The notes beneath the pieces are model-generated. The model worked only from the letters and a program-made list of their open reading frames with translations. It ran no database searches and was not told the origin of the DNA. 49,804 bases of DNA from the sequence record DRR723986_6629; one strand, 5' to 3'. Positions 6,138-30,542 of this stretch are shown piece by piece (the stretch's first letter is position 1; the number at the start of each line of letters is the position of its first letter). The translations under genes and the position numbers were made by a program.

Positions 6138-7727
6138 TCAGCTCAGGCGGAATCCCTCGTAGCCTCTGGCCGCGACCTCGTTACACTTCTGCACGTACTC
6201 GGGGAATCCGAGTAAGGGCAGAAACACGCGCGGCTTACCCGGGATATTGGCGCCGAGGTACCAGGAGTTACAGCTGGGATACAGGGTGGTGTCGGCGACC
6301 TCGTTCACGTGGACAACCCAGGCTTCCTCCGCCTCGGGTTCCGGCTCCATCAGCCGGAAGCCCTGCGCTTCCATGTAGGCGATGCTGTCCGCGACGAACT
6401 CCACGTGCTGCTCGATGGTTGGCAACATATTCGTGAGCACCGAGGGGCTGCCTGGGCCGGTAATCATGAAAAAATTGGGAAAGCCCACGGTCTCCAGGCC
6501 CAGGTAGGTTTTTGGCCCTTCGGCCCATTTGTCCTTCAGCGATCGACCGCTGCGCCCGCGGATGTCAATCCGCTCCAGAGCGCCGGTCATGGCGTCAAAA
6601 CCGGTTGCGTAGACCAGGCAGTCGAGTGCGTACTCGTCGGTGCCGCTCCGGATGCCGCTCGCGGTAATGGTGTCGATACCCTGCTCGCTGACATCAACCA
6701 GCTTCACGTTGTCCCGGTTGTAGGTATCGAAATAGCCCGTGTCGGCGCACAGGCGTTTACACAGGATGGTCGTATCGGGGCAGAGTGTCTCAGCCACCTC
6801 GGGGTCGCGAACCGTGTGGCGAATCTTGTTGCGCACGAACTCTGCCGCCTGCTCATTTGCTTCCTTGTCGGTGAACAGGTCACCAAAGGCGCCGGCAAAC
6901 AGCAGACCGCCAAGACGCCAGTGGCGCTCGAACTGTTCCTCGCGCTCCTCGGGCGCCATCTCAAGGGTAAAGCCCTGGTTTTGCGGATGGCGGGCACCAA
7001 AGCCGACAACCTGCTGCTTGTTGCGTTCGCGCAGGTCCGGGTAACGCGCCTTGATTCGCCGCTGCAGTTCCGGGTCTAGCGGACCATTCCTGGCCGGAAC
7101 CGAGTAATTGGGGGTACGCTGGAAAACCGTGAGCTGCGCCGCCTGTTCGGCAATCAGCGGAATCGCCTGGATAGCCGAAGAGCCGGTGCCGATAACGCCT
7201 ACTCGCTGGCCACTGAAGTCTACGCCTTCATGGGGCCAATGCCCGGTGTGATAGATCTTCCCCTGGAATGCGTCCTGCCCTGGCAGCACCGGCATGTTAG
7301 GCACCGAGAGACAACCCGTGGCGGCAATAACATAGCGTGCGCGCACACTTTCTCCCGCCTCAGTAATTACCTGCCAGTCACCGCGCTGTTCATCGAATAC
7401 GGCGGAAGCCACCCGGGTATCAAACTGGATATCCCGACGCAGGTCGAACCGCTCCGCTACATGGCGGGCATAGTCGAGGATCTCGGGCTGGGCGGAATAT
7501 CGTTCACTCCATTCCCACTCCTGCTGCAGATCCTCGTCGAACTGGTAGGAGTACTCGACGCTCTCCACATCGCAACGAGCGCCCGGGTAGCGATTCCAGT
7601 ACCAGGTACCGCCAACATCGGAACCGGCCTCGTACACCTGGCAATCCAGGCCCTGCTGCCGCAGCTTGTGGAGCATGTACATACCAGCAAAGCCGGCACC
7701 GATAATTATGGCGTCTCGTTGTTGCAT
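6138..7727 (-). CDS. Type I Baeyer-Villiger monooxygenase (PAMO/CHMO/steroid monooxygenase-like)
   Basis: GAGFAG, GGTWYWNRYPGARCD, BVMO fingerprint FQGKIYHTGHWP, second Rossmann motif GTGSSA, ATGFD. Confidence 0.95.
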   Translation of the reverse strand: MQQRDAIIIGAGFAGMYMLHKLRQQGLDCQVYEAGSDVGGTWYWNRYPGARCDVESVEYSYQFDEDLQQEWEWSERYSAQPEILDYARHVAERFDLRRDIQFDTRVASAVFDEQRGDWQVITEAGESVRARYVIAATGCLSVPNMPVLPGQDAFQGKIYHTGHWPHEGVDFSGQRVGVIGTGSSAIQAIPLIAEQAAQLTVFQRTPNYSVPARNGPLDPELQRRIKARYPDLRERNKQQVVGFGARHPQNQGFTLEMAPEEREEQFERHWRLGGLLFAGAFGDLFTDKEANEQAAEFVRNKIRHTVRDPEVAETLCPDTTILCKRLCADTGYFDTYNRDNVKLVDVSEQGIDTITASGIRSGTDEYALDCLVYATGFDAMTGALERIDIRGRSGRSLKDKWAEGPKTYLGLETVGFPNFFMITGPGSPSVLTNMLPTIEQHVEFVADSIAYMEAQGFRLMEPEPEAEEAWVVHVNEVADTTLYPSCNSWYLGANIPGKPRVFLPLLGFPEYVQKCNEVAARGYEGFRLS

Positions 7728-10877: not shown

Positions 10878-10930
10878 TTGACTAATATTCTGCGGTATTT
10901 TAACTTGCTAGACACAAACAAGCATGTTTC
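10878..10930 (+). promoter_or_regulatory. Sigma70-like promoter (TTGACT-N16-TTAACT) overlapped by palindromic operator A, ACTTGCT-N11-AGCATGT
   Basis: 10903-10930 matches 19024-19051 at 26 of 28 nt; both copies follow TTGACT at the same distance. Confidence 0.75.
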
Positions 10931-11019: not shown

Positions 11020-11505
11020 ATGGAAAAAGACCCAATCAGCGTCGAGGCCCTCCTCGCCCGGATTACCGAACTCGAGGCTCGCGCAGCGATCCGGGACCTC
11101 GCGTCAGACTACTGTCACGGCTTCGACAAGCGTGATTTCGACCGCTTCCTCTCTATCTGGTGGGAAGACTGCGTCTGGGACATCGGCCCCCCATTCGGCC
11201 GCTTTGAGGGACACGATGGCATCCGTAGCGCCATCCACGACGTGCTGTGGCCCGTCTGGCAGGAATCCCATCACCTGACCACCAATCTCAGAATTGACTT
11301 TATTGACGCCGACAATGCCGAGTCCGTGTGCGACGTGGACTGCATCGGCACCCTGACTGACGACCCGGTGTGCCAGATGGTCGGCGCCACCTACCGGGAT
11401 CGCCTGCAAGCACGCGATGGCCAGTGGCGCATCCTGGAGCGCAAGGTCACGATCCACTATTTCAACCCGGTGACAGGCACGATCCTGGCACCACCACAAT
11501 CCTAA
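11020..11505 (+). CDS. NTF2/SnoaL-like lyase, LinA (HCH dehydrochlorinase)/BaiE-like
   Basis: RAAIRDL.SD, FDKR, SIWW, VLWP, H.TTNLR, RDG.W and YF.P..G...APP segments are colinear with LinA as I recall it; Y31, D36, H85 and R141 present. Confidence 0.85.
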   Translation: MEKDPISVEALLARITELEARAAIRDLASDYCHGFDKRDFDRFLSIWWEDCVWDIGPPFGRFEGHDGIRSAIHDVLWPVWQESHHLTTNLRIDFIDADNAESVCDVDCIGTLTDDPVCQMVGATYRDRLQARDGQWRILERKVTIHYFNPVTGTILAPPQS

Positions 11506-11566: not shown

Positions 11567-13828
11567 ATGAAAAAGACAAGCTTGAGCACCGCACTGGCTG
11601 TCGCCACCGCTTCTCTCGCTACAACCATGACCCCACTGGCTACCGCTCAATCGGAAGTCGGCGCGCTGGAAGAGATCGTGGTAACCGCACGTAAACGCAA
11701 GGAGGATCTGCAGGATGTCGGACTATCTGTCAGCGCTATGTCTGGCACTGAGATCGATCGCACGTTCGCCAGAGACATCAGGGACCTTGCCTTCATCTCG
11801 CCGAACCTGATTATCGACGATACCTCGCAGGGCCCGGGGGGCAATGCAGCCATGTATATCCGTGGCATCGGCGTCGCCGACGTAGAAAAGAACTTTGAAC
11901 CTGCAGTAGGCGTCACTATTGACGGGCTGTTCATCGGCGCCAACAGTGGCGCGATCCTCAGGAGCATCGACCTCGCCTCAGTGGAAGTATTGCGTGGCCC
12001 ACAGGGCACGCTGTTCGGTCGTAACACTATCGGGGGCACGATCAATGTCGAAAGAAGCAGGCCTACCGGAGAACTGGGCGGCAAAGTCCGTGCTGGTTAC
12101 GGCGATTATGATCATTACTGGCTTGACGGTATCCTGAACTTCGGCATTACCGATGATCTGGCAGTAAAGCTCAGCGCTGCAAAAAACAATCAGCGCGATG
12201 GCTACTTCAAGAACGTCAGTAACGGCAATGATGATGGTGCTGTAGATTACGAGTCCTACGGCATCAACTTGCTGTGGAATGCAACCGACACCCTGGAGTT
12301 TGAGTACACCTACCAGGATGAGGAAACGGTTCAGGATACGCCCCCACTGGTCAGCATGTCGCAGCCGGGCAGCAGCCTCAGCTGTGACGTCTACAACCTG
12401 TGCGCCAAATCTTTGACTACACCAAGTTCAGGCGACCGCTACAAAGTAACCACCCTGAGTTTTGAACCCACTACAGCGTCTCTGTCCCCGCCCCCTACCA
12501 GCATTGTGACATCGGCAATCGCTGATTTGATCCCAAACAATGATGACGCCACCTTTGATGCCGAAACCCATATCTTTGAAACACGCTGGGAAATCAGCGA
12601 CAGCCTGTCGCTGAACTACATCTACGGCACCTATGAAACACAGGAAACAGTCGTCACCAACTTCTCATCAGAGCCGATCATGCTGTTTGGCACGGATCGT
12701 CCTGCAGAATATGAGCAATTGAGTCATGAACTGAGATTTACCTATGATGCCGGCGGCCCACTAAAGCTTGTTGCGGGCGCCTACTACTGGGAGTCTGAGT
12801 ACGACATCCGCCTGCGCAGCTGGATTACGTTTGCCGTGCCCGATACCGTGTTGGACATCCCGCAAACGACGCACCAGGAAACAGATTCCCAGGCGATCTT
12901 TTTCGAAGGCGATTACGCGCTGACGGATGCCCTGACCCTGACCCTGGGGGGCCGCTACACCGAAGACGAGAAGCTGTCTGAGCAGCGCGGAAACCTGTCG
13001 ACAGGACCAAACGACCCCAAGGCGGATTGGTCCGAGTTCACACCTAAAGTGGGTATGCGCTATCGGCTGAATGACGATGCCATGGTCTATGCCACTTATG
13101 CCAAGGGTTATCGCAGCGGCGGCTTCAATGGCCGGGTTGATTCGCAACCCAGCGCCCGGATCCCTTATGACCCGGAGACTGTTGATAACTACGAACTCGG
13201 CTTCAAAACCGAATGGATGGACCAGCGAGTACGATTGAACGGTGCCGTGTTCTACATGGACTACCAGGACAAGCAGGAAGAAATTGGACTTGTGTCTGAT
13301 GGTGCCACCGGCCAGCGGATTTCGGTTTTCAACGCGGCTGATGCAACCATGCAGGGCGTGGAGCTTGAGTTACAGGCGATCGTCACCGAAGGTCTGAGCA
13401 TGCGAGCAAACCTTGGCTATCTTGATTCAGAGTACGACGAGTTTACCTATGACTCTGGCTTTGGCATCGTTGATAACAGCGGATTGGAATTCCGCCGGGC
13501 ACCCGAGTTTACGGGATCCGTAGATGCGACCTACGAGTGGCAGATGGGTGGTGGCGATGCCTGGGTAAGGGGTTCATACCGCTTCCTGGGTGAGCACTTT
13601 ATCGAACAGGCAAACCGTCCGGAGCTGTCGAATGATGATCAGCACCTGGTCGACATGTCGGTGAACTACGCTACCAATGGCCTCACCTTCAGCGTTTTCG
13701 GACGTAACCTGACTGAGGAAGACGGTTGGGCGCACGGCCTGTTCGTCTCCGGTCTGTTTACCTACGCATCGGCACGCGCGCCTCGTACCTGGGGTGTTGA
13801 AGTCACCTATGATTTTGGAGCCGAGTGA
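11567..13828 (+). CDS. TonB-dependent receptor 1
   Basis: Signal peptide, TonB box LEEIVVTARKR, plug motif VEVLRGPQGTLFGRNTIGG, GYRSGGFN, C-terminal PRTWGVEVTYDF; GGAGG RBS. Confidence 0.95.
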   Translation: MKKTSLSTALAVATASLATTMTPLATAQSEVGALEEIVVTARKRKEDLQDVGLSVSAMSGTEIDRTFARDIRDLAFISPNLIIDDTSQGPGGNAAMYIRGIGVADVEKNFEPAVGVTIDGLFIGANSGAILRSIDLASVEVLRGPQGTLFGRNTIGGTINVERSRPTGELGGKVRAGYGDYDHYWLDGILNFGITDDLAVKLSAAKNNQRDGYFKNVSNGNDDGAVDYESYGINLLWNATDTLEFEYTYQDEETVQDTPPLVSMSQPGSSLSCDVYNLCAKSLTTPSSGDRYKVTTLSFEPTTASLSPPPTSIVTSAIADLIPNNDDATFDAETHIFETRWEISDSLSLNYIYGTYETQETVVTNFSSEPIMLFGTDRPAEYEQLSHELRFTYDAGGPLKLVAGAYYWESEYDIRLRSWITFAVPDTVLDIPQTTHQETDSQAIFFEGDYALTDALTLTLGGRYTEDEKLSEQRGNLSTGPNDPKADWSEFTPKVGMRYRLNDDAMVYATYAKGYRSGGFNGRVDSQPSARIPYDPETVDNYELGFKTEWMDQRVRLNGAVFYMDYQDKQEEIGLVSDGATGQRISVFNAADATMQGVELELQAIVTEGLSMRANLGYLDSEYDEFTYDSGFGIVDNSGLEFRRAPEFTGSVDATYEWQMGGGDAWVRGSYRFLGEHFIEQANRPELSNDDQHLVDMSVNYATNGLTFSVFGRNLTEEDGWAHGLFVSGLFTYASARAPRTWGVEVTYDFGAE

Positions 13829-13911: not shown

Positions 13912-14487
13912 GTGAGCAAAGATCAACTAGCGCAATTACTAGACAAACAGGCCATATCAGAGGTTGTCATAACCTACGCCAGGGCCATAGATAGAATGGA
14001 TGAGCCGCTCCTACGCAGCGTGTTCCATCCCCACTCAACCCACAACCATTTCTACCAGGGCCCCTCTTCCGACCCCGGTCGGGCAGCAACCGAGAGCGAC
14101 CCGGGTGATTTCGTACGTTTTGCTTTCCAGGTGCTATCGGGCCATGTGCGCACACACCACCAGCTGGGCAACATCCTTGTTGAATTAGAAAGCGACACCA
14201 TTGCGCGGGTGGAGACTTACTTCACCGCACACCATCGCCAGCGTGCACTCGGCGATCCCCTGGCAGCCGATAACGCATTTGAAACCGAGATGGACTTCTT
14301 TGTCGGCGGACGCTATCTCGATCGCTTCGAGCTGGTTGCGGGTGAGTGGAAAATCGCACACCGTACCGGCATGACCGACTGGATGCGCATCGATGCACCG
14401 AGTTCCTTCGGCACTGCCGGCATTGATCAGGACACCGTGGGCAAACGCACGCCCGACGACTTCCTATACAAACTGAGTAGCATCTGA
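13912..14487 (+). CDS. NTF2/SnoaL-like family protein
   Basis: LLDKQAI..V..TYARAIDR, THHQLGN and GGRYLDRF...GEWKIAHR motifs; GAGG RBS with GTG start. Confidence 0.88.
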   Translation: MSKDQLAQLLDKQAISEVVITYARAIDRMDEPLLRSVFHPHSTHNHFYQGPSSDPGRAATESDPGDFVRFAFQVLSGHVRTHHQLGNILVELESDTIARVETYFTAHHRQRALGDPLAADNAFETEMDFFVGGRYLDRFELVAGEWKIAHRTGMTDWMRIDAPSSFGTAGIDQDTVGKRTPDDFLYKLSSI

Positions 14488-14521: not shown

Positions 14522-15358
14522 ATGGGAGACAGACTCGCAAACAAGGTCGCAGTGATCACCGGCGGTGCCAGTGGTATCGGCGCAGAAACCGCAGAAAAAT
14601 TTGTGCAACATGGCGCAAAGGTAGTTCTGGGCGACATTCAGGATGGTCCCGGCGAAGCCTTTGCCGCAAAGCTAGGCGACGGCGCTCGCTTTCGTCACTG
14701 CGACGTGACCAAAGAGTCGGACGTCGAGGCGCTGGTCAATACCGCCATCGAGGAGTTCGGCCAGATCGACATCATGTTCAATAACGCGGGCATCGTCGGT
14801 GCCATCGGCCCTCTGGATTCAACGCCCGCGGAAGAATGGAAGTTCACCCTGGACATTCTGCTCAACGGCGTGTTCTACGGCATGAAACACGCATCAAAGC
14901 ACATGAAAAAGGCCGGCTCCGGTTCGATTATCAGCATGTCCAGTGTCGCCGGGGTCACCGGTGGACTGGGGCCGCACGCCTATGCTGCAGCCAAGCACGC
15001 GGTGGTGGGCCTGACCCGCAATCTGGCGGCTGAAGTAGGCGCCTACGGGGTACGCGTGAACTGCATCGCACCCTACAGTGTGGCAACACCAATGGTGGCC
15101 CAGGCCTATCTCAGCGACCACACCGACGTTGAGGGCACCCTGAAAATGCTGACCGATGAGTCACCGTTGCGCGGCCGCCCCGGGCTCGCCGATGACGTGG
15201 CCAATGCCGTTCTTTGGTTGGCCAGTGACGAGTCTGGCTACACCAGCGGTCATACCCTGACTATCGATGCGGGCATCACTACCGGCTCGGTAGCCGGCCC
15301 CCCACGCTTCTCCGAGCATGTGCCCATGCAGCGTGAGGCTGGCAAGACCGGCATGTAA
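14522..15358 (+). CDS. Classical SDR oxidoreductase, secoisolariciresinol/xanthoxin dehydrogenase-like
   Basis: TGGASGIG, NNAG, catalytic YAAAK within GLGPHAYAAAKHAVVGLT, RVNCIAPYSVATPM. Confidence 0.9.
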   Translation: MGDRLANKVAVITGGASGIGAETAEKFVQHGAKVVLGDIQDGPGEAFAAKLGDGARFRHCDVTKESDVEALVNTAIEEFGQIDIMFNNAGIVGAIGPLDSTPAEEWKFTLDILLNGVFYGMKHASKHMKKAGSGSIISMSSVAGVTGGLGPHAYAAAKHAVVGLTRNLAAEVGAYGVRVNCIAPYSVATPMVAQAYLSDHTDVEGTLKMLTDESPLRGRPGLADDVANAVLWLASDESGYTSGHTLTIDAGITTGSVAGPPRFSEHVPMQREAGKTGM

Positions 15359-15400: not shown

Positions 15401-15838
15401 ATGGGCCAGGATATAGACGAGCAGGCGATCCTGCAGTTGATGGTTGATTACTGCGACAGTGTCGATCGCGGCGATCTTGATGCCTTCGCGGGACTGTTTG
15501 CCGCGGGCGCATGGGGTATTGCCGGTGATCTCGCCCACGGAAGTGAGGCGGTAAGAGCCGTACTCGACAATGTGACGCTTTATGACGGGATACCAAACAC
15601 CCGCCACCTGATGTCCAATGTGCTGATCACAGTAGAGTCGGATGGGATAACGGCCAACGCAAGCAGTTGCATCACGGTCATGCAGTGCATCCCTGATGAC
15701 TTCCCACTGCAGGCAATTTTCATCGGCACCTATCACGACCGCCTGCGCAAGCGCGACAATGAGTGGTTTTTCGAAGAGCGTCTTATTGTGCCTAACCTGG
15801 TCGGCGATATGTCACGTCATCGCGGAGACATGGCCTAG
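15401..15838 (+). CDS. NTF2/SnoaL-like family protein
   Basis: DYCDSVDRGD, YDGIPNTRHLMSN and GTYHDR....EWFFEER motifs. Confidence 0.85.
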   Translation: MGQDIDEQAILQLMVDYCDSVDRGDLDAFAGLFAAGAWGIAGDLAHGSEAVRAVLDNVTLYDGIPNTRHLMSNVLITVESDGITANASSCITVMQCIPDDFPLQAIFIGTYHDRLRKRDNEWFFEERLIVPNLVGDMSRHRGDMA

Positions 15839-15929: not shown

Positions 15930-17558
15930 CTAACCTGCCAGGCGCGAGAATTCCAACTCCGGGTAACCCTCGTTGGCTGATTCGTCCAACCTGTCGTAGT
16001 ACACGTTGGCACCGCCAAAGTAGATCAGCACGCGTGGTCGCTTGGTCTCAAGGTTTGCTCCCATCATCCAGGAATTCACCTTGTCGCCCTCCGCCATCAG
16101 GGTCGCGTTGTGCACTTCCGCCACGTGCGCGGTCCACTCGGCCTCGGCTTCCGGTTTCGGCGTGCAGACGTCGTAACCTTCGCGCTCCATGGTACTGATG
16201 CAGTTGGCGATCCACATCGCATTCTGCTCGATGGAGGTGGGCAGGTTGGCGAATGGCGCCTGCGGTCCGGTAATGATGAACATGTTGGGGAAGTCCGCCA
16301 CGCAGACGCCCATGATGGAGCTGGAGGTCTCGCGCCACTTCTCAGCCAGGCTCTGGCCACTGACACCACGAATCGGGAAGGCTTCCAGGGCACCAGTGTA
16401 GGCACTGAAGCCGGTCGCCAGCACAATGATGTCGAAGTCGTAGCTGTTCTCCGTGGTCCGGACACCGGTCTCGGTGATTTCGACGATCGGCTCCTTGTCC
16501 TTGATATCGATCAGGTGCACATCGTCGCGATCGAAACACTCGAGATAGCCGTGGTCCAGCGGCGGACGCTTGGCAAACAGCGGGTAGTCACCCAGCTTGG
16601 GCACCAGGATATCCGCGACTTCCGGATTCTTGATGCGCTCGCGCATCTTCCTGAGGATGAACTCCGAGGCCATATCGTTCGCTTCCTGGCTGCCCAGCAA
16701 GTCCTCGAAGGTCTCGAATACCCAGCGGAAGCTGCCGGTCCACTTCTCCTCGAAGATGCGCTCGCGCTCCTCCGGGGGTGTGTCCACGGCCATGCGGCCC
16801 TCAGCGGTGTCAAAGGCCATTCCAAACATGTGGTTGCGGCACTTGGCGACAATCTCGTCGTAATTTTCCTTGATTTCCTTTTCCCATTCCTCGGTCATCG
16901 GCGCCTGCATTGCCGGCAGGATGAAGTTCGGTGTGCGATGGAATACGGTGACGCTCTCGGCCTTTCCGCACATGGCGGGAACCATCTGCACGGTGGTGGC
17001 GCCGGCGCCGATGATCCCGATACGCTTACCCTCCCACTCAAGCCCTTCAGGCCAGCGGGAGGAGTGGAACAACGGACCCTTGAAGGTATCCATGCCCTTG
17101 ATTTTCGGGATGACCGGCTCGGAGATCATCCCCATGCCGCTGATAAAGTACTTACAGGTGAAGGTTTCCCCCTCACCGGTGGTGACCAGCCACTGACCGC
17201 TGTCCTTCTGGTAATCGGCGCTGACGATCTCGGTGTTGAGCTGGATGTCACGCCACATGTCGCACTTGTCGACCACGAAACGCATGTAATCCTGGGTCTC
17301 TTTCCAGTCCGGGTAACGCCGGGTCCACTTCCACTCCTGCAGCAATTCCTTGGAGAAGGTCAGGCAGTAGTAATAGCTCTCGCTATCCGTCATGGCGCCC
17401 GGGTAACGGTTCCAGGTCCAGGTACCGCCGACGTCGCTCGCCTTGTCGAACACCCTGATGGATTGGCCCGCCTCGCGGAGATAGTGGATCAATGCTATGC
17501 CGGCAAAGCCGGCGCCGATGACGATGGTATCGAAGTCTGGTTTTTGCTGAGACGCCAT
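15930..17558 (-). CDS. Type I Baeyer-Villiger monooxygenase 2
   Basis: GAGFAG, GGTWTWNRYPGA, fingerprint FKGPLFHSSRWP, GAGATT, KRP, ATGF. Confidence 0.95.
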   Translation of the reverse strand: MASQQKPDFDTIVIGAGFAGIALIHYLREAGQSIRVFDKASDVGGTWTWNRYPGAMTDSESYYYCLTFSKELLQEWKWTRRYPDWKETQDYMRFVVDKCDMWRDIQLNTEIVSADYQKDSGQWLVTTGEGETFTCKYFISGMGMISEPVIPKIKGMDTFKGPLFHSSRWPEGLEWEGKRIGIIGAGATTVQMVPAMCGKAESVTVFHRTPNFILPAMQAPMTEEWEKEIKENYDEIVAKCRNHMFGMAFDTAEGRMAVDTPPEERERIFEEKWTGSFRWVFETFEDLLGSQEANDMASEFILRKMRERIKNPEVADILVPKLGDYPLFAKRPPLDHGYLECFDRDDVHLIDIKDKEPIVEITETGVRTTENSYDFDIIVLATGFSAYTGALEAFPIRGVSGQSLAEKWRETSSSIMGVCVADFPNMFIITGPQAPFANLPTSIEQNAMWIANCISTMEREGYDVCTPKPEAEAEWTAHVAEVHNATLMAEGDKVNSWMMGANLETKRPRVLIYFGGANVYYDRLDESANEGYPELEFSRLAG

Positions 17559-17617: not shown

Positions 17618-18913
17618 TTAACCCTCGAGGTAATGGCCGTATTTTTTCATCGCCTGCTCGCGCAGGGTCGGCGAGTGGTAGGTCGGGAAGAGGCCCGGTG
17701 CCGCCTCGTAGTCACGCAATACCGTGCGTGCAACCGTAACCTTATGCACTTCCGATGGTCCGTCAACAACACCCAGCTCGGGGATATCGGCCCACATATA
17801 CATCAGCGGGATCTCATCCGACATACCCAGGCTGCCGTGCAGGTGCATGGCGCGATATACGACTTCCTGCAATACCTTCGGGGTAGCCGCCTTGATCGCC
17901 GCGATCTCCTTGCGCACCTCCCGGTTGTATTCCTTGTGCTTATCGATCAACCACGCTGTATATAGCACATGCAGGCGGTACTGCAGTATCTGGGTGTAGC
18001 TGTCCGCAATCTTGTCCTGGGTAAGCTGCTTATTGGCCAGCAATTCACCCTTGGTGGTCCGGCTCAGCACCCGCTCACACATCATGTCCATGGCTTTCTT
18101 TAGCTTGCCCACGCTGCGCATGGCGTGGTGTACCCTGCCGCCGCCAAGCCGCGTCTGCGCCACCAGGAAGCCCTTGCCTTCTTCTCCGAGGAGATTTTCC
18201 GCCGGCACCCGGCAGTTGGTAAAGCGGATATAACCGTGCACGCCATCGCCCTGTTCGACATAGGGGCCGACAGCGGAGTTGCGCAGAATCTCCATGCCCG
18301 GCGTGCCCTTCTCCACCAGCACGATGGAGGCGCCTTCATGGATTGGACGATCGGGATTGGTGACGACCATCACCAGCAGGAACTCGGAGAACCGGGCGTG
18401 AGAGGCGAACCACTTCTCGCCGTTGATCACCCATTCATCGCCATCGCGGGTCGCCGTACAGGTGAACTCGGCGGGATCGGCACCGGCCTGGGGCTCGGTC
18501 ATCGAATAGCAGGAGGCAATCTTGCCGTCCAACAGCGGCTGCAGGTATTTCTCTTTCTGCTCCGGTGTACCGAAGTGCGCGAGAATCTCGGCATTGCCTG
18601 AGTCCGGCGCCTGGCAACCGAAGACGCTGGGACCAAAGCGGCTGCGCCCCAGGATCTCATTCATCAGGCCGAGTTTAACCTGGCCGTAGCCCTCACCACC
18701 CAGTTCCGGTCCGATGTGGCAGGCCCAGAGGCGCTTCTGCTTGACGATTTCCCTCAGCGGGGCCATCGCCTTTGCGGCAGGGGAATCAGGATCCCAGGGG
18801 TCACCTGGGCCGCGAAATACCAGGTCGAGCGGCTCGATCTCCTCGCGGGTGAATTCCTCGATCCAGTTGAGTTGCTCCTGGAATTCAGGATCGGTCTCAA
18901 AGCTCCAGCTCAC
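17618..18913 (-). CDS. Acyl-CoA dehydrogenase, ACAD10/ACAD11/LvaC-like subfamily
   Basis: CQAPDSGNAEIL, SMTEPQAGADP, INGEKW, RLGGGRVHHAMR and DGPSEVH motifs. Confidence 0.9.
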   Translation of the reverse strand: MSWSFETDPEFQEQLNWIEEFTREEIEPLDLVFRGPGDPWDPDSPAAKAMAPLREIVKQKRLWACHIGPELGGEGYGQVKLGLMNEILGRSRFGPSVFGCQAPDSGNAEILAHFGTPEQKEKYLQPLLDGKIASCYSMTEPQAGADPAEFTCTATRDGDEWVINGEKWFASHARFSEFLLVMVVTNPDRPIHEGASIVLVEKGTPGMEILRNSAVGPYVEQGDGVHGYIRFTNCRVPAENLLGEEGKGFLVAQTRLGGGRVHHAMRSVGKLKKAMDMMCERVLSRTTKGELLANKQLTQDKIADSYTQILQYRLHVLYTAWLIDKHKEYNREVRKEIAAIKAATPKVLQEVVYRAMHLHGSLGMSDEIPLMYMWADIPELGVVDGPSEVHKVTVARTVLRDYEAAPGLFPTYHSPTLREQAMKKYGHYLEG

Positions 18914-18998: not shown

Positions 18999-19051
18999 TT
19001 GACTTGCGGGCCCCGCATCTTATACTTGCTAGACGCAAACAAGCAAGTTTC
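18999..19051. promoter_or_regulatory. Divergent promoter region: TTGACT-N16-TATACT overlapped by operator A, ACTTGCT-N11-AGCAAGT
   Basis: Perfect 7-bp inverted repeat at 19024-19048; near-identical copy at 10903-10927. Confidence 0.8.
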
Positions 19052-19069: not shown

Positions 19070-19801
19070 ATGACAGCACAAAAAGTCTGGCTCGTCACAG
19101 GTGCCTCCCGGGGCATCGGCCTGGCCACCGCTGAGCGGGCCATTGCCGCTGGTGACAAGGTCGCCCTGCTCGCCCGGGGCGACGTGGTACAGGAACTGGC
19201 TGCCGGCCTGGGAGCGGATGCGCTTGCCCTGCAGGCAGACGTCAGCGACCCCGCGCAAGTGCAGGCCGCCGTGGCCCGCCTGCAGGACCAATGGGGCAAG
19301 GTAGACCGCATCGTCAATAACGCCGGTTACCATCGCGGCGGCAAGATCGGCAAACTCAGCAGCACTGACTGGCAGGCCGTGCTCGACGTCAACCTGAGCG
19401 GTGCCCTGAACGTGATCACTGCCTGCAACGAGCTGATCAGCGACGATGGCGCCATTGTCAATGTCGGCGCCGTGGTGGGCTTTCGCGGCTTCCCCGGCGA
19501 CGCCGCCTACGCGGCATCAAAATCCGGCCTTGCCGGCCTTACCCGGGCCCTGGCGATCGAGTTCGCAGCCCGCGGCATCACCGTCAATCTCGTGATACCC
19601 GGCCTGGTGCTCACGGACATGACCGAGGGACTCTCCCCCAAGGCGCTTGAGTCCATGCGCCGCAAGATTCCGCTGCAACGCTACGGCGAACCGGCGGAAA
19701 TCGCCGACGTGATCCTGTGGGTCGCCGGGTCGCGCTACATGACCGGTGCCTTCATCCCCACCGACGGTGGCCTGATGTCCAGCTTCGGCATTGCGGGCTG
19801 A
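19070..19801 (+). CDS. SDR oxidoreductase (FabG/LvaD-like)
   Basis: TGASRGIG, NNAG, YAASK, IPLQRYGEPAEIA. Confidence 0.9.
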   Translation: MTAQKVWLVTGASRGIGLATAERAIAAGDKVALLARGDVVQELAAGLGADALALQADVSDPAQVQAAVARLQDQWGKVDRIVNNAGYHRGGKIGKLSSTDWQAVLDVNLSGALNVITACNELISDDGAIVNVGAVVGFRGFPGDAAYAASKSGLAGLTRALAIEFAARGITVNLVIPGLVLTDMTEGLSPKALESMRRKIPLQRYGEPAEIADVILWVAGSRYMTGAFIPTDGGLMSSFGIAG

Positions 19802-19802: not shown

Positions 19803-20819
19803 ATGACAGCAGCTGACAATGCCCTGGCCCGCTGGTGCGAAACCCACCTGGGGTTGACCGGCGCGCGTATCGAACGCGAACTGAGTGGGGGTAATTCCAA
19901 CCTCACCCAACTGGTATTCACCGATCAGCGCCCCCTGGTAATGCGCAGCCCGCCGGCCAACACCATCTCACCGAAGGCCCATAAGGGCGTGGAGCGCGAA
20001 TACACGGTGATGCGCGCCCTGCACGGGCATGTACCGGTCCCGGAAGCCGTGGCCTGGTGCGACGACGCCAGCATCACCGGCCAGCCCTTCGCGCTCGTCG
20101 AACATATCGCCGGCGTGTCGATCAGCGACGAATTGCCCGCCGGGTATGACGGCGTTACCGCGATCAATGCCCTCGGCGAGCAGCTCAGCGACGCCCTGGC
20201 GGCCCTCGCCACCGCTCCCTGGCAGGCGCTTGGCCTCAGCAACTTCGGCAACCCGGACAATTTCCTGCTGCGCCAGATCGACCGCTGGCTCGCGGTGCGC
20301 GCTGACAGCAGCGTCAGGGACCTGCCGCAGATCGTCGAACTGGGCAACTGGCTCAGGAACAATCTGCCGGAGGACGCGCCGGTCGGTGTGGTACACGGCG
20401 ACTTTCATCTCGACAATACCCTGTGCCACCCCGAGCGCCCTGAGCTGCTGGCGGTGATCGACTGGGAAATGGCCAGTATCGGCGATCCACTGACCGACCT
20501 GGGGTTGTTCCTGATGTTCTGGGGCAATCAACGCAGCGCCAACCCGCCGGGCTTTGCGCATGTGCAGGCGGTGACGCGTTGCGCCGGGGTTGTCGACCGG
20601 CGCAGTCTGGCGCAACGCTGGGCACGCGCCAGCGGCCTTTCCATAGAGAAGCTCGACTTCTACCTGTGCTTCGCCTTCTGGCGCCTGGCGGCAATCGTCG
20701 AAGGTGCCTACGGGCTGTATGTGAACGGCAAGGTGGACACCCCCTATGCCCGGGGACTGGAGTACGACGTACCCGCCTTACTGGACGAAGCCGCGCGGGC
20801 GGCACAGGGAGACTGGTAA
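19803..20819 (+). CDS. APH-family phosphotransferase (ACAD10/11 kinase domain or LvaA-like)
   Basis: GGNSNLT, REYTVMRAL, HGDFHLDN and VIDWEMASIGDPLTDLG motifs. Confidence 0.9.
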   Translation: MTAADNALARWCETHLGLTGARIERELSGGNSNLTQLVFTDQRPLVMRSPPANTISPKAHKGVEREYTVMRALHGHVPVPEAVAWCDDASITGQPFALVEHIAGVSISDELPAGYDGVTAINALGEQLSDALAALATAPWQALGLSNFGNPDNFLLRQIDRWLAVRADSSVRDLPQIVELGNWLRNNLPEDAPVGVVHGDFHLDNTLCHPERPELLAVIDWEMASIGDPLTDLGLFLMFWGNQRSANPPGFAHVQAVTRCAGVVDRRSLAQRWARASGLSIEKLDFYLCFAFWRLAAIVEGAYGLYVNGKVDTPYARGLEYDVPALLDEAARAAQGDW

Positions 20820-22432
20820 TGCAGGCGACGATGATGCACACGCCGATGACCGTGCAGCTTATCCTGCAGCACGGCCAGGCGGTGTTCCCGAACAGCCGGG
20901 TGGGCACTTTTGACGGCGAATCGATCAGCTACAAACGCTACGAGGACATTGCGGCGGACGCGACCCGCCTCGCCGCTGCGCTGGACGAACTGGGCATCCG
21001 CCCCGGTGAGCGCGTGGCCACCTTCAGCTGGAACAACACCGCCCACATGGAGGCCTACCTGGCCATTCCCTCCATGGGCGCGATCATGCACACCGTCAAC
21101 ATCCGCCTGTCGCCGGAGCATATTGCCTACATCATCAACCATGCCGAAGACCGCGCCGTGCTGCTCGACGCCAGCCTGGTGGAACTGTTCGAACCCGTGC
21201 TGCCGCTGCTGGAAACCGTCGAACATATCGTGGTCATCGGCGACAGCGCCCACTTCGACGGGTTCACCTGTCACAACTACGAGGCGCTGCTGGACGCGCA
21301 GGCCCCTGAGTTCGACTGGCCGGAGCTGGATGAAACCCAGGCGGCGGCGATCTGCTACACCTCGGGTACGACCGGCAATCCAAAAGGCGTGGTATACAGT
21401 CACCGAACGACCTTTGTGCATTCCCTGGCATCCCGGGCCAGCGATACTTTCGGGATCAGCGAACACGATCGCATCCTGCTGTTGCCCTCCATGTTTCACG
21501 CCAACGCCTGGGGCCTGCCCTACAGCGGCTGGTTCAGCGGCAGCGACTTCATCATGCCCGGCCCGCACCTGCAGCTGCCGGGCATCGAAGCCATGGTCAG
21601 CCAGGCGCGACCAACCATCACCGCGATGGTACCCACCATCCTCGGGGACCTGCTGCGGGCTCCACCGGAGCGGGAGCTGGATATGCGTTGCTTCCGGATG
21701 CTGGTCTGCGGCGGATCTGCGGTAGCGCCGGCAATGATCGATGCCGCTCGCGAACAATGGGGAGTACCGGTACTGCAGGGTTGGGGTATGACCGAGACCA
21801 GCCCCCTGTGTGCGCTGTCGCACCCGCCCCGTGACCCCGGTCCCGGCGGCGAGACGCCCTGGCGCGCCAAGAGCGGACGGCCGGTCGCTGGCGTGCAGGT
21901 ACGGGTGGTTGACGATAAGGGCGAGCCGCTGGCGCACGATGGCCAGACGGTGGGCGAACTGCAGTTGCGCGGCCCCTGGATCACCGGTGGCTATCATCGC
22001 GGCGAATCGCCGGATTCGGTCACCGCTGACGGCTGGCTGAGAACCGGGGACGTGGGGCATATCGACGAACGTCACTACGTCACCCTGACCGACCGCACCA
22101 AGGACGTTATCAAGTCCGGCGGCGAATGGATCTCCTCGGTCGACCTGGAGAACATCCTGCTGGGCCATCCGGGCGTGCTCGAGGTAGCGGTGATCGCCAC
22201 CGCTGATGAACGCTGGCAGGAACGTCCTCTGGCCGTCGTGGTGACCCGCGATGCCAGCGTGGACGCAGCGGCACTGCGGGCCTACCTGAGCGGGAAAGTG
22301 GCCAGGTTCTGGATTCCCGAGTACTGGGCCTTCACCGACGAGATTGCCAAGACCAGCGTCGGCAAGCTGGACAAGAAACAGCTGCGCGCCGCCAACGAGA
22401 ACGGCGCACTGCCAATCCAGGAGGTTCGATGA
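20819..22432 (+). CDS. Fatty acyl-CoA ligase (AlkK/DmdB-like subfamily)
   Basis: YTSGTTGNPKG, GWGMTET, GWLRTGD, DRTKDVIKSGGEWISS, SVGKLDK; TAATG overlap with the upstream gene. Confidence 0.92.
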   Translation: MQATMMHTPMTVQLILQHGQAVFPNSRVGTFDGESISYKRYEDIAADATRLAAALDELGIRPGERVATFSWNNTAHMEAYLAIPSMGAIMHTVNIRLSPEHIAYIINHAEDRAVLLDASLVELFEPVLPLLETVEHIVVIGDSAHFDGFTCHNYEALLDAQAPEFDWPELDETQAAAICYTSGTTGNPKGVVYSHRTTFVHSLASRASDTFGISEHDRILLLPSMFHANAWGLPYSGWFSGSDFIMPGPHLQLPGIEAMVSQARPTITAMVPTILGDLLRAPPERELDMRCFRMLVCGGSAVAPAMIDAAREQWGVPVLQGWGMTETSPLCALSHPPRDPGPGGETPWRAKSGRPVAGVQVRVVDDKGEPLAHDGQTVGELQLRGPWITGGYHRGESPDSVTADGWLRTGDVGHIDERHYVTLTDRTKDVIKSGGEWISSVDLENILLGHPGVLEVAVIATADERWQERPLAVVVTRDASVDAAALRAYLSGKVARFWIPEYWAFTDEIAKTSVGKLDKKQLRAANENGALPIQEVR

Positions 22433-22436: not shown

Positions 22437-23084
22437 ATGAGCGAAAGCAGCGGAGATAACGCAGTGCTGGGCAAAATGACCCAGGCGGAGCGCACCGCGC
22501 TCTCGGATCAGCGCATGTTCCAGGCGGCGGTGACACTGATCAATGAGCGAGGCACGCAGAAGACAACGCTCAAGGACATCGGCGAGATGGCAGGCTACAG
22601 CCGCGGCCTGGCCAACTACCGCTTCGGCTCCAAGGACGGCTTTCTGCAGGAACTGTTTCACCAGTTCGACGGCCGCTGGAAGAACCATCTGGACAGCTAT
22701 ATTAAAGGCGAGTCTGGTATTGCCGCGGTACTGGCGGCGGCTAACGCCCTGCGTGATTTCCTGCAGAACGAGTCAGAGTATATGCGCGCCATGTATATCC
22801 TCTGGTACGAATCCCTGGGGCACGAGTCGGATATCCGTAACAGCCTGGCCGAACACCACCGGGTTTATCGCAAGGACGCCACCCGTTGGATCTCCCAGGG
22901 TATCGAAGACGGCGAGATAGACCCGGCCATCGATGCGGCGCAGTTTGCAGTGCAGTATTGCGCCTTTATTTTCGGCATCGTTTACCAGTGGCTGGTAAAC
23001 GCAGCCGCGCTCGACCTCGACGCGGTATTCAACGAATACGAAAAGAACATCCTGAAATTACTGAGCAAAAAGGAGTCCGCCTAA
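22437..23084 (+). CDS. TetR/AcrR family regulator (TetR-A)
   Basis: TQAERT...TTLKDIGEMAGYSRGLANYRFGSKDG helix-turn-helix. Confidence 0.93.
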   Translation: MSESSGDNAVLGKMTQAERTALSDQRMFQAAVTLINERGTQKTTLKDIGEMAGYSRGLANYRFGSKDGFLQELFHQFDGRWKNHLDSYIKGESGIAAVLAAANALRDFLQNESEYMRAMYILWYESLGHESDIRNSLAEHHRVYRKDATRWISQGIEDGEIDPAIDAAQFAVQYCAFIFGIVYQWLVNAAALDLDAVFNEYEKNILKLLSKKESA

Positions 23085-23890
23085 TGGCCTATCTCGATAC
23101 CGGTAACGGCAAGAACATCTACTACGAAGATTACGGCAGCGGCGACAGCGCCATTGTCCTGGTCCACGGCTGGGGCATGGGCCTGCGCATGTGGGACTAC
23201 AACCTCCCCGCGCTGATCCAGGCCGGCCACCGGGTAGTCGCGATCGACCATCGGGGCTGCGGACGCTCGGACAAGGACTTCGACGACTTCGGCATCGAAG
23301 CCATCGCCGGCGACGTGGTAGCGCTGGTGGGCAAGCTTGGCCTGAAGCACGTCGTGCTCAATGGCTGGTCACTGGGCGGTGCGGTGGTGGTTGCCGCAGC
23401 GGCACAGCTTGGCAGTACCTGCAGCGGCCTGTTTCTCACCTGTGCAGCGACGCCGGCTTATCTGCAGAAGCCGGACTTTCCGCACGGCGGTACGGATGAG
23501 GCTATGGCCGAGACCCTGGCCGCACTGACCGCTGACCGGGTAAATTTTCTCGCCGCCCTGTCGCAAGGTGTCTGCGCGGAAGGCACATCGGCGGACGTCA
23601 TCAGCTGGATGTGGCGCTGCTTCATGGAGGCCACTCCGATGGCGGCCCAGGGCCTGGCAGAGCTCGGCCCCCTGGACCAGCGCGATATGCTGGCCAGCCT
23701 TGGAATGCCAATCGTCAGCGCGGTGGGCGCACTGGACCAGGTGGTCGATCCCAACGTCTGCCGCTCGGTAAAGGATTACAATGCCGCGGCAACGATTATC
23801 GAGTTCGAGGCTTCCGGGCACGCCCCGCAAGTTGAGGAAGCCGCCCGCTATAACAGCGAATTGCTGGCATTCTGCAGCAATTGCCTCTAA
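23084..23890 (+). CDS. Alpha/beta hydrolase (esterase/lactonase-like)
   Basis: LVHGWG, DHRGCGRS, nucleophile GWSLGG, acid residue in LDQVV, His in SGHAP; TAATG coupling to TetR-A. Confidence 0.9.
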   Translation: MAYLDTGNGKNIYYEDYGSGDSAIVLVHGWGMGLRMWDYNLPALIQAGHRVVAIDHRGCGRSDKDFDDFGIEAIAGDVVALVGKLGLKHVVLNGWSLGGAVVVAAAAQLGSTCSGLFLTCAATPAYLQKPDFPHGGTDEAMAETLAALTADRVNFLAALSQGVCAEGTSADVISWMWRCFMEATPMAAQGLAELGPLDQRDMLASLGMPIVSAVGALDQVVDPNVCRSVKDYNAAATIIEFEASGHAPQVEEAARYNSELLAFCSNCL

Positions 23891-23907: not shown

Positions 23908-24909
23908 ATGGCATCGCGCATCAACTACGGCCTGTGGTACGACTTCAGAAATCCGCTGGCCTGGCACCAGCCCAATGAGACCTTCTACGCCGAGCGCCTG
24001 CAGCAGATTGCCGACGCAGAGGAACTGGGTTTCTCGAGCTGCTGGCTGACCGAGCATCATTTTTGCGAGGACGGCTATACCCCATCGCCGCTGGTGATCG
24101 CCGCGGCGATCGGCGCGCGCACCAAGCGCATGCAGCTGGGTACCAACCTGATGCTGCTGCCGCTGCACGACCCGATCCGGGTAGCCGAGGATGCCGCCAC
24201 CCTGTCGCTGACGACTGGCGGCCGCTTCGACCTCGGCGTGGGCATCGGTTATCGGCAGTTGGAGTTCGATCAGTTCGGCCGCAAGATTTCCCACCGGCCC
24301 AGCCTGATCGAGGAAGGCATCGAGATCGTGCGCCGCGCCTGGTCTGGCGAGCCGGTCAATTTTTCCGGCAAGCGCTTCGAGGTAGGTGAGCTGTGCGTTA
24401 CCCCGACGCCGGACAAGCCTCCGGCCATCCTGCTGGGTGGCATGGTGCCACCCGCCATCGAGCGCGCAGCTCGCATCGCGGACGGCTTCCTGTGCACCGG
24501 CGGCATCGGATTGGATGTGTATGCAGAAGCGCTGGAAAAACAGGGTAAATCTGCCAGCGACGGATCGGTGGTGCTGGGTTGCTGGGCAATCATTGCCGAG
24601 GACCCGGAGGCAGAGGCGGCGCGCATCGGCGACCACGTGCTCTACCAGATCAACGAGTACATCAAATGGGGCGCGTTCGGCCCACCGGACCAGACACCCC
24701 TGTTTGAGGACTACAAGAGCGCGATTGAGAACGGGTTGTACGAGATGTGGGATGCCGACACGGCGGTGACCGAGCTGACCAAGCTCATTACTGCCTACCC
24801 CAATATCCGCGACATTCACTTCTGGGCCCAGTTCCCGGGTGAGAGCGTTGAGTCCGGCAACCGCCGCCTCGACTACATCGCGCGGGAAGTTCTGCCCCGG
24901 CTGCCCTGA
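23908..24909 (+). CDS. LLM-class (luciferase-like) flavin-dependent oxidoreductase
   Basis: WLTEHHFCEDGYTPSP, LHDPIRVAEDAA and GRFDLGVGIGYR motifs. Confidence 0.9.
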   Translation: MASRINYGLWYDFRNPLAWHQPNETFYAERLQQIADAEELGFSSCWLTEHHFCEDGYTPSPLVIAAAIGARTKRMQLGTNLMLLPLHDPIRVAEDAATLSLTTGGRFDLGVGIGYRQLEFDQFGRKISHRPSLIEEGIEIVRRAWSGEPVNFSGKRFEVGELCVTPTPDKPPAILLGGMVPPAIERAARIADGFLCTGGIGLDVYAEALEKQGKSASDGSVVLGCWAIIAEDPEAEAARIGDHVLYQINEYIKWGAFGPPDQTPLFEDYKSAIENGLYEMWDADTAVTELTKLITAYPNIRDIHFWAQFPGESVESGNRRLDYIAREVLPRLP

Positions 24910-24910: not shown

Positions 24911-25531
24911 TTACTCCAGGCCGGTCAGCCGGAGCATGGTGCCCAGAAACAGGCTGTGGGCGCCCTCCAGGTCGATGTCGTCATCGAAGTACACTGCGGA
25001 GCGCAGGCCGATCATCAGCGCATAGGCCAGCTCCGCCGCATCGCGCGCTGACGGCATGAACAGCGCCGGGGCGGCGGCAAAGATTTCCGCCAGGAAGGCT
25101 TTACAGCGACTGTCGAATTCCGCCTTGGTGACCCGCAGCACATCGTCGTTCACGGCTGCACCAAAACACTCCAGCATGAAACCGATTTCCTTGCGTGTCC
25201 CTGTCTCGCCGCGAAACCAGAAATCGGCCAGGGCTTCAATCTGGTCCCGGGTTGAGAGCGTCTGCATCTCGTCCAGTCGCTGCACGAACTGCACCGAGAC
25301 ATTCTCAAAGTACTGCTCCAGCACGTCTTCCTTGCCCTTGAAATAATAGAGCAGGTGGCTGGCGCTCATGCCCGCACCCTGCGCCACATCAGCCAGGGTC
25401 GTCTTGACGTAGCCCTTCTCGAGAATGCAATCGTGGAGCGAACGGAAGATGCGTCGGCGCCGCTTGTCACCGCGGGAACCGCGTCGAGCAGCAGGTGCTT
25501 CACTAGCTGTTTGGGGCTGGAGGTCTGGCAT
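24911..25531 (-). CDS. TetR/AcrR family regulator (TetR-B)
   Basis: KGYVKTTLADVAQGAGMSASHLLYYFKGKEDVL helix-turn-helix; divergent from the 25658 operon; start chosen at ATG 25531. Confidence 0.9.
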   Translation of the reverse strand: MPDLQPQTASEAPAARRGSRGDKRRRRIFRSLHDCILEKGYVKTTLADVAQGAGMSASHLLYYFKGKEDVLEQYFENVSVQFVQRLDEMQTLSTRDQIEALADFWFRGETGTRKEIGFMLECFGAAVNDDVLRVTKAEFDSRCKAFLAEIFAAAPALFMPSARDAAELAYALMIGLRSAVYFDDDIDLEGAHSLFLGTMLRLTGLE

Positions 25532-25598
25532 GGCGCGCACCTTAGCAGTTCTGGCCCTGGCCGAGTAGCCGGAATAACCGCCGTCGCGGGCCAACTTC

Positions 25599-26886: not shown

Positions 26887-26897
26887 GACAGCATCAC

Positions 26898-30541: not shown

Positions 30542-30542
30542 T

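Follow-up and report, generated by a model that had tools for sequence, protein, structure and literature searches.

The LinA-like gene and its product

The window analysed here is a stretch of 49,804 nucleotides from sequence record DRR723986_6629, and the gene of interest lies at positions 11,020 to 11,505, whose product resembles LinA, the dehydrochlorinase of hexachlorocyclohexane (HCH). LinA is a textbook example of an enzyme that acts on a man-made compound, and its origin is unknown. The gene in the window stands directly upstream of a TonB-dependent receptor gene and shares an operator-like motif with a second group of catabolic genes. We rate its product as an uncharacterised LinA-like SnoaL_4 lyase with a newly described regulon rather than as a new kind of system. 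The preferred reading, to which we assign a probability of about one half, is that the protein would act within this shared-operator regulon as a His-Asp eliminase (dehydratase) on a small oxygenated alicyclic or lactone intermediate.

The Pfam family SnoaL_4 (PF13577) matches residues 17-142 of the protein with an E-value of 4e-25 (88.7 bits against a cut-off of 24), covering profile positions 2-126 of 126, and no NCBIfam model was obtained at E <= 1e-10. In a BLASTP comparison with LinA of Sphingobium indicum B90A, translated from plasmid pSRL1, 37% of the residues (55/150) are identical, with one 1-residue gap, an E-value of 2e-39 and a score of 118 bits. The almost gapless alignment to LinA that had been described in the original prediction is thereby confirmed, and the motifs listed with it (RAAI.DL.SD, DKR, SIWW.D..W.I, VLWP, H..TNLR..F..AD, RDG.W, and YF.P..G...APP) are seen in the alignments. 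In a phmmer search against the PDB sequences, the LinA entries take the top places over residues 15-159 (3s5c, 3.6e-32; 5kvb, 1.7e-31; 3a76, 1.4e-30), and the first non-LinA protein is 3b8l at 1.4e-7.

As judged from these comparisons, the likeness to LinA is far beyond chance and beyond that of a generic SnoaL_4 protein. Three genomes that carry an orthologue each gave one strong match (E-values from 8e-68 to 1e-82), so that the orthologue is single-copy in 3/3 genomes, and their other SnoaL_4 paralogues match the window protein at 3e-10 or weaker, with at most 41 bits compared to 118 bits for LinA. The two other SnoaL_4 proteins encoded in the same operon show no match to LinA at E <= 0.001. 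Two further features are common to LinA and the window protein. The second Trp of IWW(D/E)D is found in only 9 of 99 family representatives, and the Pro-Pro of the C-terminal YF.P..G...PP tail in 6 and 12 of the 99. These representatives are the full-length sequences (140-200 aa) among the 150 best cluster representatives of an exhaustive search, which found 1362 representatives at E <= 0.001, 197 at <= 1e-10, and 18 at <= 1e-30.

The AlphaFold2 model of the protein, calculated from an input alignment of 56 sequences, has a mean pLDDT of 96.5 and shows the α+β cone fold, every top Foldseek match being NTF2-like. In the Foldseek search of the PDB, LinA chains occupy ranks 1-9 (TMq 0.86-0.88, rmsd 1.0-1.3 Å, 36-38% identity), followed by two uncharacterised Novosphingobium NTF2 proteins, the bile-acid dehydratase BaiE at rank 12 (TMq 0.81, 20% identity), and scytalone dehydratase at rank 34. 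The N-terminus, read directly from the sequence, contains no signal peptide, and the protein is on this basis predicted to be cytoplasmic.

Genes of the locus

The features of the locus are collected in Table 1. The window is densely coding, its genes abutting one another, and the genes from SDR2 to LLM form a tightly packed six-gene operon. For the neighbouring genes NCBIfam gave only generic names.

Table 1. Features around the LinA-like gene, numbered from the first nucleotide of the window; counts of loci refer to the best 80 of 154 loci that encode a relative
Feature	Position	Strand	Remarks
TTGACT hexamer (-35-like)	10878..10883	+	read from sequence; 19 nt upstream of motif
21-nt operator-like motif ACTTGCTAGACACAAACAAGC	10903..10923	+	96 nt upstream of LinA-like ATG
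LinA-like SnoaL_4/NTF2 enzyme gene	11020..11505	+	ATG start, 161 aa; Y31, D36, H85, R141
TonB-dependent receptor	11567..13828	+	Pfam Plug plus barrel; 61 nt downstream of LinA-like gene
Second SnoaL_4 protein	13912..14487	+	191 aa; same Y/D/H/R set; in 46/80 loci
SDR oxidoreductase (SDR1)	14522..15358	+	in 44/80 loci
Third SnoaL_4 protein	15401..15838	+	145 aa; in 21/80 loci
Type I Baeyer-Villiger monooxygenase (BVMO), cyclohexanone-monooxygenase type	15930..17558	-	PDB 5m0z 1.2e-139, Pfam; in 28/80 loci
ACAD10/11-type acyl-CoA dehydrogenase (ACAD)	17618..18913	-	PDB 4hr3 1.6e-73, ACAD11 8v3u 3e-70; generic ACADs 1.6e-43 or weaker
Second motif copy	19024..19044	+	divergent ACAD/SDR2 intergenic region; 19 nt after TTGACT 18999-19004
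SDR oxidoreductase (SDR2)	19070..19801	+	open reading frame listed from TTG 19004; ATG 19070 likely start
APH-family kinase (APH)	19803..20819	+	PDB 9o56 4.8e-52, 3dxp 2.6e-50, ACAD11 kinase domain 2.4e-36
Acyl-CoA synthetase (ACS1)	20819..22432	+	Pfam AMP-binding; NCBIfam long-chain-fatty-acid--CoA ligase subfamily, 590 bits (in-frame fragment from 20879)
TetR-family regulator within operon	22437..23084	+	Pfam TetR_N; candidate motif binder
α/β-hydrolase (ABH), arylesterase / cofactor-free perhydrolase type	23084..23890	+	esterase or lactonase candidate
Luciferase-like flavin monooxygenase or oxidoreductase (LLM)	23908..24909	+	sequence matches

The BVMO, through its strong match to a cyclohexanone-monooxygenase-type enzyme, bears out the alicyclic catabolism context that had been proposed for the gene. 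The ACAD, which is 87-94% identical among Halieaceae loci, and the APH kinase are each most similar to one domain of mammalian ACAD11, and the two separate genes look like a split bacterial version of the ACAD10/11 system. ACAD10 and ACAD11 are described as phosphorylating 4-hydroxyacyl-CoAs and eliminating the phosphate, thereby feeding β-oxidation (PMC12440821 and PMC11342911).

No PDB relative of the second SnoaL_4 protein was found by sequence. The occurrence of three NTF2 enzymes in one operon suggests several related steps on one substrate. The ACAD/APH/SDR/ACS module may also resemble the lva operon of Pseudomonas putida, in which lvaD and lvaE would be the counterparts of the SDR and the acyl-CoA synthetase. 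The best solved relatives of the ABH are labelled bromo-/chloroperoxidase and arylesterase; they are cofactor-free perhydrolases, and the label could mislead as a link to halogens.

The absence of an insertion sequence (IS) near the gene, claimed previously, also holds. No transposase family match was found among the 48 open reading frames scanned in the window, and the GC content of the LinA-like gene (60.7%) is that of its surroundings (60.3% for the window), as expected of a compositionally native gene. The linA gene of pSRL1 has a GC content of 52.9% in a locus of 59.4%, with IS6100 lying 40 nt downstream. A shared synteny of linA and this gene cluster was considered and rejected, the similarity being generic only (34% for the ACAD, 41% for the LinC-type SDR, and 27% for a receptor fragment). 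The acyl-CoA dehydrogenase beside linX/linA of S. indicum B90A on pSRL1 is 34% identical to the window ACAD (227 bits), a similarity too low to demonstrate a common origin of the neighbourhoods.

Further catabolic genes lie elsewhere in the window. A second block at 25658-37820 encodes an SDR, an acyl-CoA synthetase, a MaoC-like hydratase, a thiolase-like protein, a Rieske oxygenase α subunit, a second TonB receptor, a glutathione S-transferase, and a pyrroloquinoline quinone (PQQ) dehydrogenase with a cytochrome c domain, next to a divergent TetR gene at 24911-25594. A second flavin monooxygenase of BVMO/FMO type is encoded upstream at 6138-7727 on the minus strand and adjoins lipoyl synthase, and a TonB / ExbB / ExbB-like / DUF3450 / TPR energising cluster at 39192-44272, also on the minus strand, probably serves the two TonB receptors of the window.

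Distribution and conserved linkage

Of 697 candidates in a word-indexed search with the window protein, 660 reached E <= 0.001, and the best 120 of these are 63-86% identical. Named relatives among these 120 are from Halieaceae, for example Pseudohalioglobus sediminis and IMCC14734. Cultured carriers of the gene include Seongchinamella unica GH4-78, Pseudohalioglobus sediminis NY5, and Litorirhabdus singularis IMCC14734. In the databases they usually appear as 'NTF2 family' or 'ketosteroid isomerase-like', and P0056 and three further relatives in a cluster look-up are automatically named 'gamma-HCH dehydrochlorinase'. A relative is encoded in 154 stretches when one genome per species is searched, and the best 80 loci belong to Halieaceae, other Pseudomonadales, Steroidobacteraceae, Rhodobiaceae, and Novosphingobium. 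The orthologue is also carried by 11 of 401 sampled Sphingomonadaceae genomes. Over 90 orthologue rows the identity to LinA ranges from 32 to 43% and is highest in the sphingomonads. The DNA matches of the locus come from marine plankton metagenomes of one study, which is the only habitat evidence; no RNA sample was among the matches listed. The family appears to consist of single-copy orthologues of marine Halieaceae and other Gamma- and Alphaproteobacteria that are among the nearest natural relatives of LinA.

Gene linkage was counted in the best 80 loci. Many of these 80 are truncated, and the adjacency counts have denominators of 70 or 71, the loci with enough sequence. An orthologue of the TonB receptor is present in 72/80 loci and lies directly downstream of the LinA-like gene in 47/70, in line with the earlier view of the latter as the first gene of an uptake operon. 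Other neighbours are less constant in position: 12/70 loci have the hydrolase gene directly downstream of the orthologue, 13/71 have the ACAD gene directly upstream, and a TetR gene is divergent in 2/71 and directly downstream in 1/70, while at least one of ACAD, APH, SDR2, ACS1, ABH, LLM and BVMO is found within the locus in 43/80. In ten further sphingomonad loci, the ACAD gene is immediately upstream in 10/10 and the ABH gene immediately downstream in 9/10; in the tenth, a luciferase-like gene precedes the hydrolase downstream of the orthologue. The gene set is constant while the gene order varies between lineages.

A common cis-element ties the LinA-like gene and the receptor to the ACAD/SDR2-APH-ACS1-TetR-ABH-LLM genes. 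The 21-nt motif came from k-mer counting over the 80 orthologue upstream regions. The 49.8-kb window contains exactly two copies of the sequence ACTTGCTAGACRCAAACAAGC, both free of mismatches, against an expectation of 0 from 100 shuffles, and the BVMO gene lies between these two sites. Across the related loci, 96 sites with up to 4 mismatches are found in 68/80 loci, 21 of them exact and in 17 loci, and five shuffles gave 0-1. Nearly half of the sites (46/96) precede the LinA-like gene by at most 300 nt, and a further 20 fall between ACAD and SDR2; others stand in front of BVMO, receptor or TetR genes. Since both copies in the window follow a TTGACT hexamer by 19 nt, the motif would overlap a -10 region. 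These results agree with the description of the gene as regulated.

Active site and pocket

The Asp25-His73 catalytic dyad of LinA, as defined in PMC3507683, aligns to D36 and H85 of the window protein, and R129 and K20 correspond to R141 and Y31; all four residue assignments made previously are correct. For comparison of the pockets, 19 LinA active-site positions from the same source were used, among them K/Q20, L21, V24, I44, L64, F/Y68, V94, L/C96, I109, A111, F/Y113, A/G131, C132, and T/M133. In the orthologous family 15 of the 19 are invariant in 90/90 rows, of which L089 repeats L079 and L087 is identical to L082. The invariant residues are Y31, C32, F35, D36, W53, I55, L76, W80, H85, V106, C108, A123, Y125, R141, and V143 in the numbering of the window protein. 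This invariance indicates one conserved small hydrophobic substrate. In the 56-sequence alignment behind the structural model, D36 and H85 are likewise invariant and Y31 and R141 are at least 90% conserved.

At 9/19 positions, or at 10 when Ile109, present in 11/90 rows, is counted, LinA type 2 has the residue of the family. The protein is a close natural relative of LinA, as had been proposed, with the fold, the dyad, and about half of the pocket in common. LinA type 2 departs from the family at positions 20, 21, 24, 68, 71, 129, and 131-133, the family being invariant or nearly so at 20, 21, 24, 68, 71, and 131-133. Within LinA itself, K20 and R129 are variable, type 2 having Q20 and L129, and type 2 is reported to be about as active as type 1 (PMC3507683). 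The relative encoded on a plasmid of Sphingomonas sp. MM-1, together with a second protein referred to below as the MM-1 type, carries the family residues at positions 20, 21, 68, 96, 109, 111, 113, 129, and 131. This pattern of shared positions fits a conserved ancestral pocket that LinA alone may have remodelled.

The tyrosine at position 31 had been regarded as a mark of BaiE. The active centre of BaiE is given as Tyr30/Asp35/His83 plus Arg146 in PMC11110704, and the spacing of Y31/D36/H85 equals that of its first three residues. Nevertheless, the same set is found in about 90 of the 99 family representatives and is non-discriminating: at the positions of LinA K20, D25, H73, and R129, these carry Tyr in 90/99, Asp in 98/99, His in 98/99, and Arg in 89/99, respectively. 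The tyrosine is present also in the sister group of LinA and in the second SnoaL_4 protein of the operon. Because of this distribution, Tyr-x4-Asp...His...Arg is to be seen as the rule in this part of the SnoaL_4 family and LinA, with K, Q, or L at position 20, the exception, K/Q20 being the derived state. BaiE chains were not found by phmmer against the PDB at E <= 10, they are only 19-20% identical to the window model in the Foldseek alignment (TMq 0.79-0.81), and the neighbouring genes are not bai genes. The label 'BaiE-type' is accordingly withdrawn; Tyr31 is a reasonable hint at carbonyl-directed chemistry with no special link to BaiE.

Relationship to LinA

Three trees were calculated: a quick one with 112 rows (99 representatives, 8 family members, 3 LinA, the MM-1 plasmid protein, and the window protein), a careful one with 55 rows, from which the long-branched P0171 and P0187 were removed and in which 28 outgroup rows were chosen from the higher-scoring full-length representatives, and a careful one with 74 rows, which also included 41 orthologues translated from genome loci. 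Because the window protein served as query in collecting every row, lineages near LinA but far from this protein may be missing. In all three trees the sister of LinA is the MM-1 type, with support of 97/99 (55 rows) and 99/99 (74 rows). This type comprises the Sphingomonas sp. MM-1 protein WP_015449273, encoded on plasmid pISP0, and WP_056364533 from other Sphingomonas, which are 43-46% identical to LinA. Together with the window family (α and γ branches) and two or three smaller lineages, the pair of LinA and the MM-1 type forms a superclade supported at 97/86 (55 rows) and 84/92 (74 rows), the inner order of which is a polytomy.

The window protein lies outside the 100/100 LinA clade, the known linA genes being more than 90% identical to each other according to PMC5144681, and outside the clade of LinA and the MM-1 type. 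Approximately unbiased (AU) tests do not reject an exclusive clade of the window family and LinA (p 0.186, delta lnL 13.5) or one of the window family, LinA, and the MM-1 type (p 0.209); a protein of 160 columns is too short to settle the order near LinA. The protein is thus near the LinA clade without being the sister of LinA. Of the placement suggested earlier, the nearness to LinA stands in weakened form, whereas the sister position is taken by the MM-1 type, beside which the window family falls into the polytomy.

Several observations concern the surroundings of LinA in sequence space. A word-indexed search with LinA as query returned 36 proteins, many of which are fragments and whose identity to LinA is 67-100%; being word-based, it is blind to relatives at 35-46% identity and uninformative on other lineages near LinA. 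Between LinA and the 46% level, no intermediates were found other than P0277 and P0325, metagenome proteins from JGI that are 76% identical to LinA; in P0277, position 20 is Leu and the catalytic Asp25 is replaced by His. The MM-1-type gene on pISP0 (NC_020542.1, 103667-104110), whose product is 43% identical to LinA, lies approximately 780 nt downstream of an IS6100 transposase gene, and its GC content of 53.8% in a 63.9% locus is much like that of linA (52.9%). Among the 401 sampled Sphingomonadaceae genomes, no MM-1-type protein was found at >= 70% identity.

Proposed role and alternative explanations

The homology, the fold, the conserved residues, the linked genes and the common motif are established by the analysis, whereas the reaction, the class of substrate and the protein that acts as repressor are inferred. 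The invariant Asp-His dyad with Tyr and Arg, the small hydrophobic pocket, the cytoplasmic location, and the co-regulation with uptake, ring-ketone oxidation, ester or lactone hydrolysis, CoA activation, and a 4-hydroxyacyl-CoA module are the reasons why a proton-abstracting lyase is proposed. In this mechanism His85, polarised by Asp36, would take a proton beside a carbonyl, and Tyr31 and Arg141 would polarise that carbonyl, or else hold the carbonyl or the leaving group. The substrate, an oxygenated intermediate of alicyclic or lactone type derived from an imported natural compound, would lose water, or else another oxygen leaving group, by β-elimination. The product could then pass through Baeyer-Villiger oxidation, ring opening, CoA activation, the 4-hydroxyacyl-CoA kinase/eliminase, and β-oxidation. 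A Tyr/Asp/His set with a nearby Arg is what the dehydratase BaiE uses (PMC11110704).

Some points weigh against a dehydratase. Of the close relatives only LinA is characterised, and its reaction is dehydrochlorination rather than dehydration; within the orthologous family, no characterised member was found. The 9-10 of 19 pocket positions shared with LinA may leave room for activity on halogenated rings, and the conserved residues would fit dehydration, isomerisation or other proton-abstraction chemistry alike, so that the reaction is not fixed by them. As for the regulon, a consensus promoter/terminator scan gave no promoter upstream of the LinA-like gene and flagged neither motif site, and an inverted-repeat search of the upstream region did not find the motif; that the in-operon TetR probably binds the motif as its operator is itself an inferred step.

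An allylic isomerase would use the same His-Asp base and a Tyr/Arg oxyanion hole in order to move the double bond of an enone or butenolide, and NTF2-fold ketosteroid isomerases do use the same kind of proton shuttle. One such route would convert an α,β- into a β,γ-butenolide, which the neighbouring enol-lactonase-like hydrolase could open to a 4-oxo acid for the Lva/ACAD10/11-like module. The hydrolase has 3-oxoadipate enol-lactonase among its NCBIfam matches (7.6e-24, below the cut-off), the linked module resembles ACAD11, which handles 4-hydroxyacyl-CoA, and the order ACAD, LinA-like gene, ABH is adjacent in 9/10 sphingomonad loci. Nevertheless, the nearest characterised relatives, LinA, BaiE, and scytalone dehydratase, are all eliminases, and no ketosteroid isomerase appears above Foldseek position 50, which makes isomerisation a rather unlikely explanation. 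A non-catalytic NTF2 protein, either a ligand carrier or chaperone-like protein that passes the imported hydrophobic substrate from the TonB receptor pathway to the enzymes or a partner resembling an oxygenase β-subunit, is very improbable. Many NTF2/SnoaL_4 proteins are indeed non-enzymatic or dioxygenase small subunits, one JGI relative is automatically named 'dioxygenase small subunit', and the coupling to the receptor gene is tight. Such a role accords poorly with a dyad that is invariant together with Tyr and Arg in 90/90 rows, with the N-terminus devoid of a signal peptide, and with the position of the only Rieske α subunit, which lies 19 kb away, outside the set of linkage queries.

The original prediction had named a dehydratase or dehydrohalogenase for a natural alicyclic substrate, such as algal halogenated terpenes; as a genuine dehydrohalogenase, the protein would eliminate HCl or HBr as LinA does. 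The dyad, the fold, and 9-10 of 19 active-site positions equal to LinA type 2 speak for such a dehydrohalogenase, as do the dispensability of K20 and R129 in LinA type 2 (PMC3507683), the DNA matches from marine plankton metagenomes, and the name 'hexachlorocyclohexane dehydrochlorinase' that some pipelines give automatically to relatives. On the other hand, nothing in the regulon points to halogens: it contains no other dehalogenation gene, all linked genes handle oxygenated carbon skeletons, the hydrolase fits haloalkane dehalogenase at the fold level only (41.5 bits against a cut-off of 241), and its 'haloperoxidase' PDB matches are cofactor-free perhydrolase/arylesterase folds. Moreover, Tyr31 and Arg141 are the family default, present in hundreds of non-LinA proteins, and the positions where LinA departs (20, 21, 24, 68, 131) are invariant in the window family. 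A halogenated substrate is therefore improbable, and elimination of an oxygen leaving group is the reaction that we prefer.

Implications for the origin of LinA

In a 2016 genome comparison that included strain MM-1, linA is said to have no significant similarity except to near-identical linA genes (PMC5144681). Our search of the full-text literature, which covered papers other than subscription papers and supplements, found no paper on natural LinA relatives; the databases carry such proteins under generic or automatic names. A paper on ocean organohalides (PMC12660952) names LinA, outside its supplements, in the introduction and references only. The present analysis shows that LinA does have natural relatives and that these are widespread, their pocket being strongly conserved and their genes belonging to a defined, regulated catabolic pathway. 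A protein still closer to LinA is encoded, without having drawn comment, on a plasmid of the HCH degrader MM-1, and the best candidate for the immediate kin of LinA is this MM-1-type protein, not the window gene.

The idea that LinA was recruited from an ancestral enzyme still preserved in the window family is tentative, and we consider it doubtful. It would be in keeping with the pocket residues Y, C, F/V, W, S/T, R, and V (LinA positions 20, 21, 24, 68, 71, 129, and 131), which the MM-1 type also keeps. If it were true, LinA would have arisen from that scaffold by a few substitutions that opened the pocket of a laterally mobile copy in sphingomonads, and the family would combine a natural elimination on alicyclic rings with a latent, measurable dehydrochlorinase activity, so that the route to a pesticide degrader could be replayed residue by residue. 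The origin of LinA becomes experimentally approachable, with fewer than ten differing pocket residues to exchange. Beyond LinA, abundant marine Halieaceae have in this regulon a combination of TonB-dependent uptake, ring cleavage of the BVMO type, and a split ACAD10/11-like module, which makes it a lead for marine carbon turnover, and metagenome pipelines that name the relatives 'HCH dehydrochlorinase' may overcount the dehalogenation potential of the ocean.

Comparison with known systems

Among the known systems, LinA (3a76, 3s5c, 5kvb) shares with the window protein the SnoaL_4 family, the dyad D25/H73, and the residues W42, I44, L64, V94, C96 (type 2), A111, and Y113 (type 2). The two genes differ in their setting: linA is an IS6100-associated, laterally acquired sphingomonad gene, whereas the window gene is native in composition and belongs to a conserved regulon with no IS. 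The MM-1 type is 43% identical to the window protein and has in common with it the pocket residues Y, C, W68, C96, V109, A111, Y113, R129, and V131 as well as the C-terminal tail; unlike the window protein, it is the sister of LinA, and its gene on pISP0 adjoins IS6100 outside an ACAD/ABH context.

With respect to chemistry, BaiE, the bile-acid 7-α-dehydratase, resembles the window protein in its NTF2 fold and its Tyr-x4-Asp...His set plus Arg, but acts on a steroid-CoA substrate and belongs to the bai operon of anaerobic Firmicutes. Scytalone dehydratase (3std) and SteC, the steroid C12-β dehydratase of Comamonas testosteroni (described in PMC13101464), are NTF2-fold enzymes that eliminate water from hydroxy-ketone rings, which is the chemistry proposed here. 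Scytalone dehydratase is 11-13% identical to the window protein (TMq 0.66-0.68), and SteC is likened to it by description only. Finally, ACAD10/11 of mammals is one fused protein, whereas the corresponding activities would be encoded by separate genes in the window, and the ACAD10/11 and lva systems as described lack a TonB receptor, a BVMO, an esterase, a luciferase-like enzyme, and a LinA-like protein, all of which the window joins in one locus.

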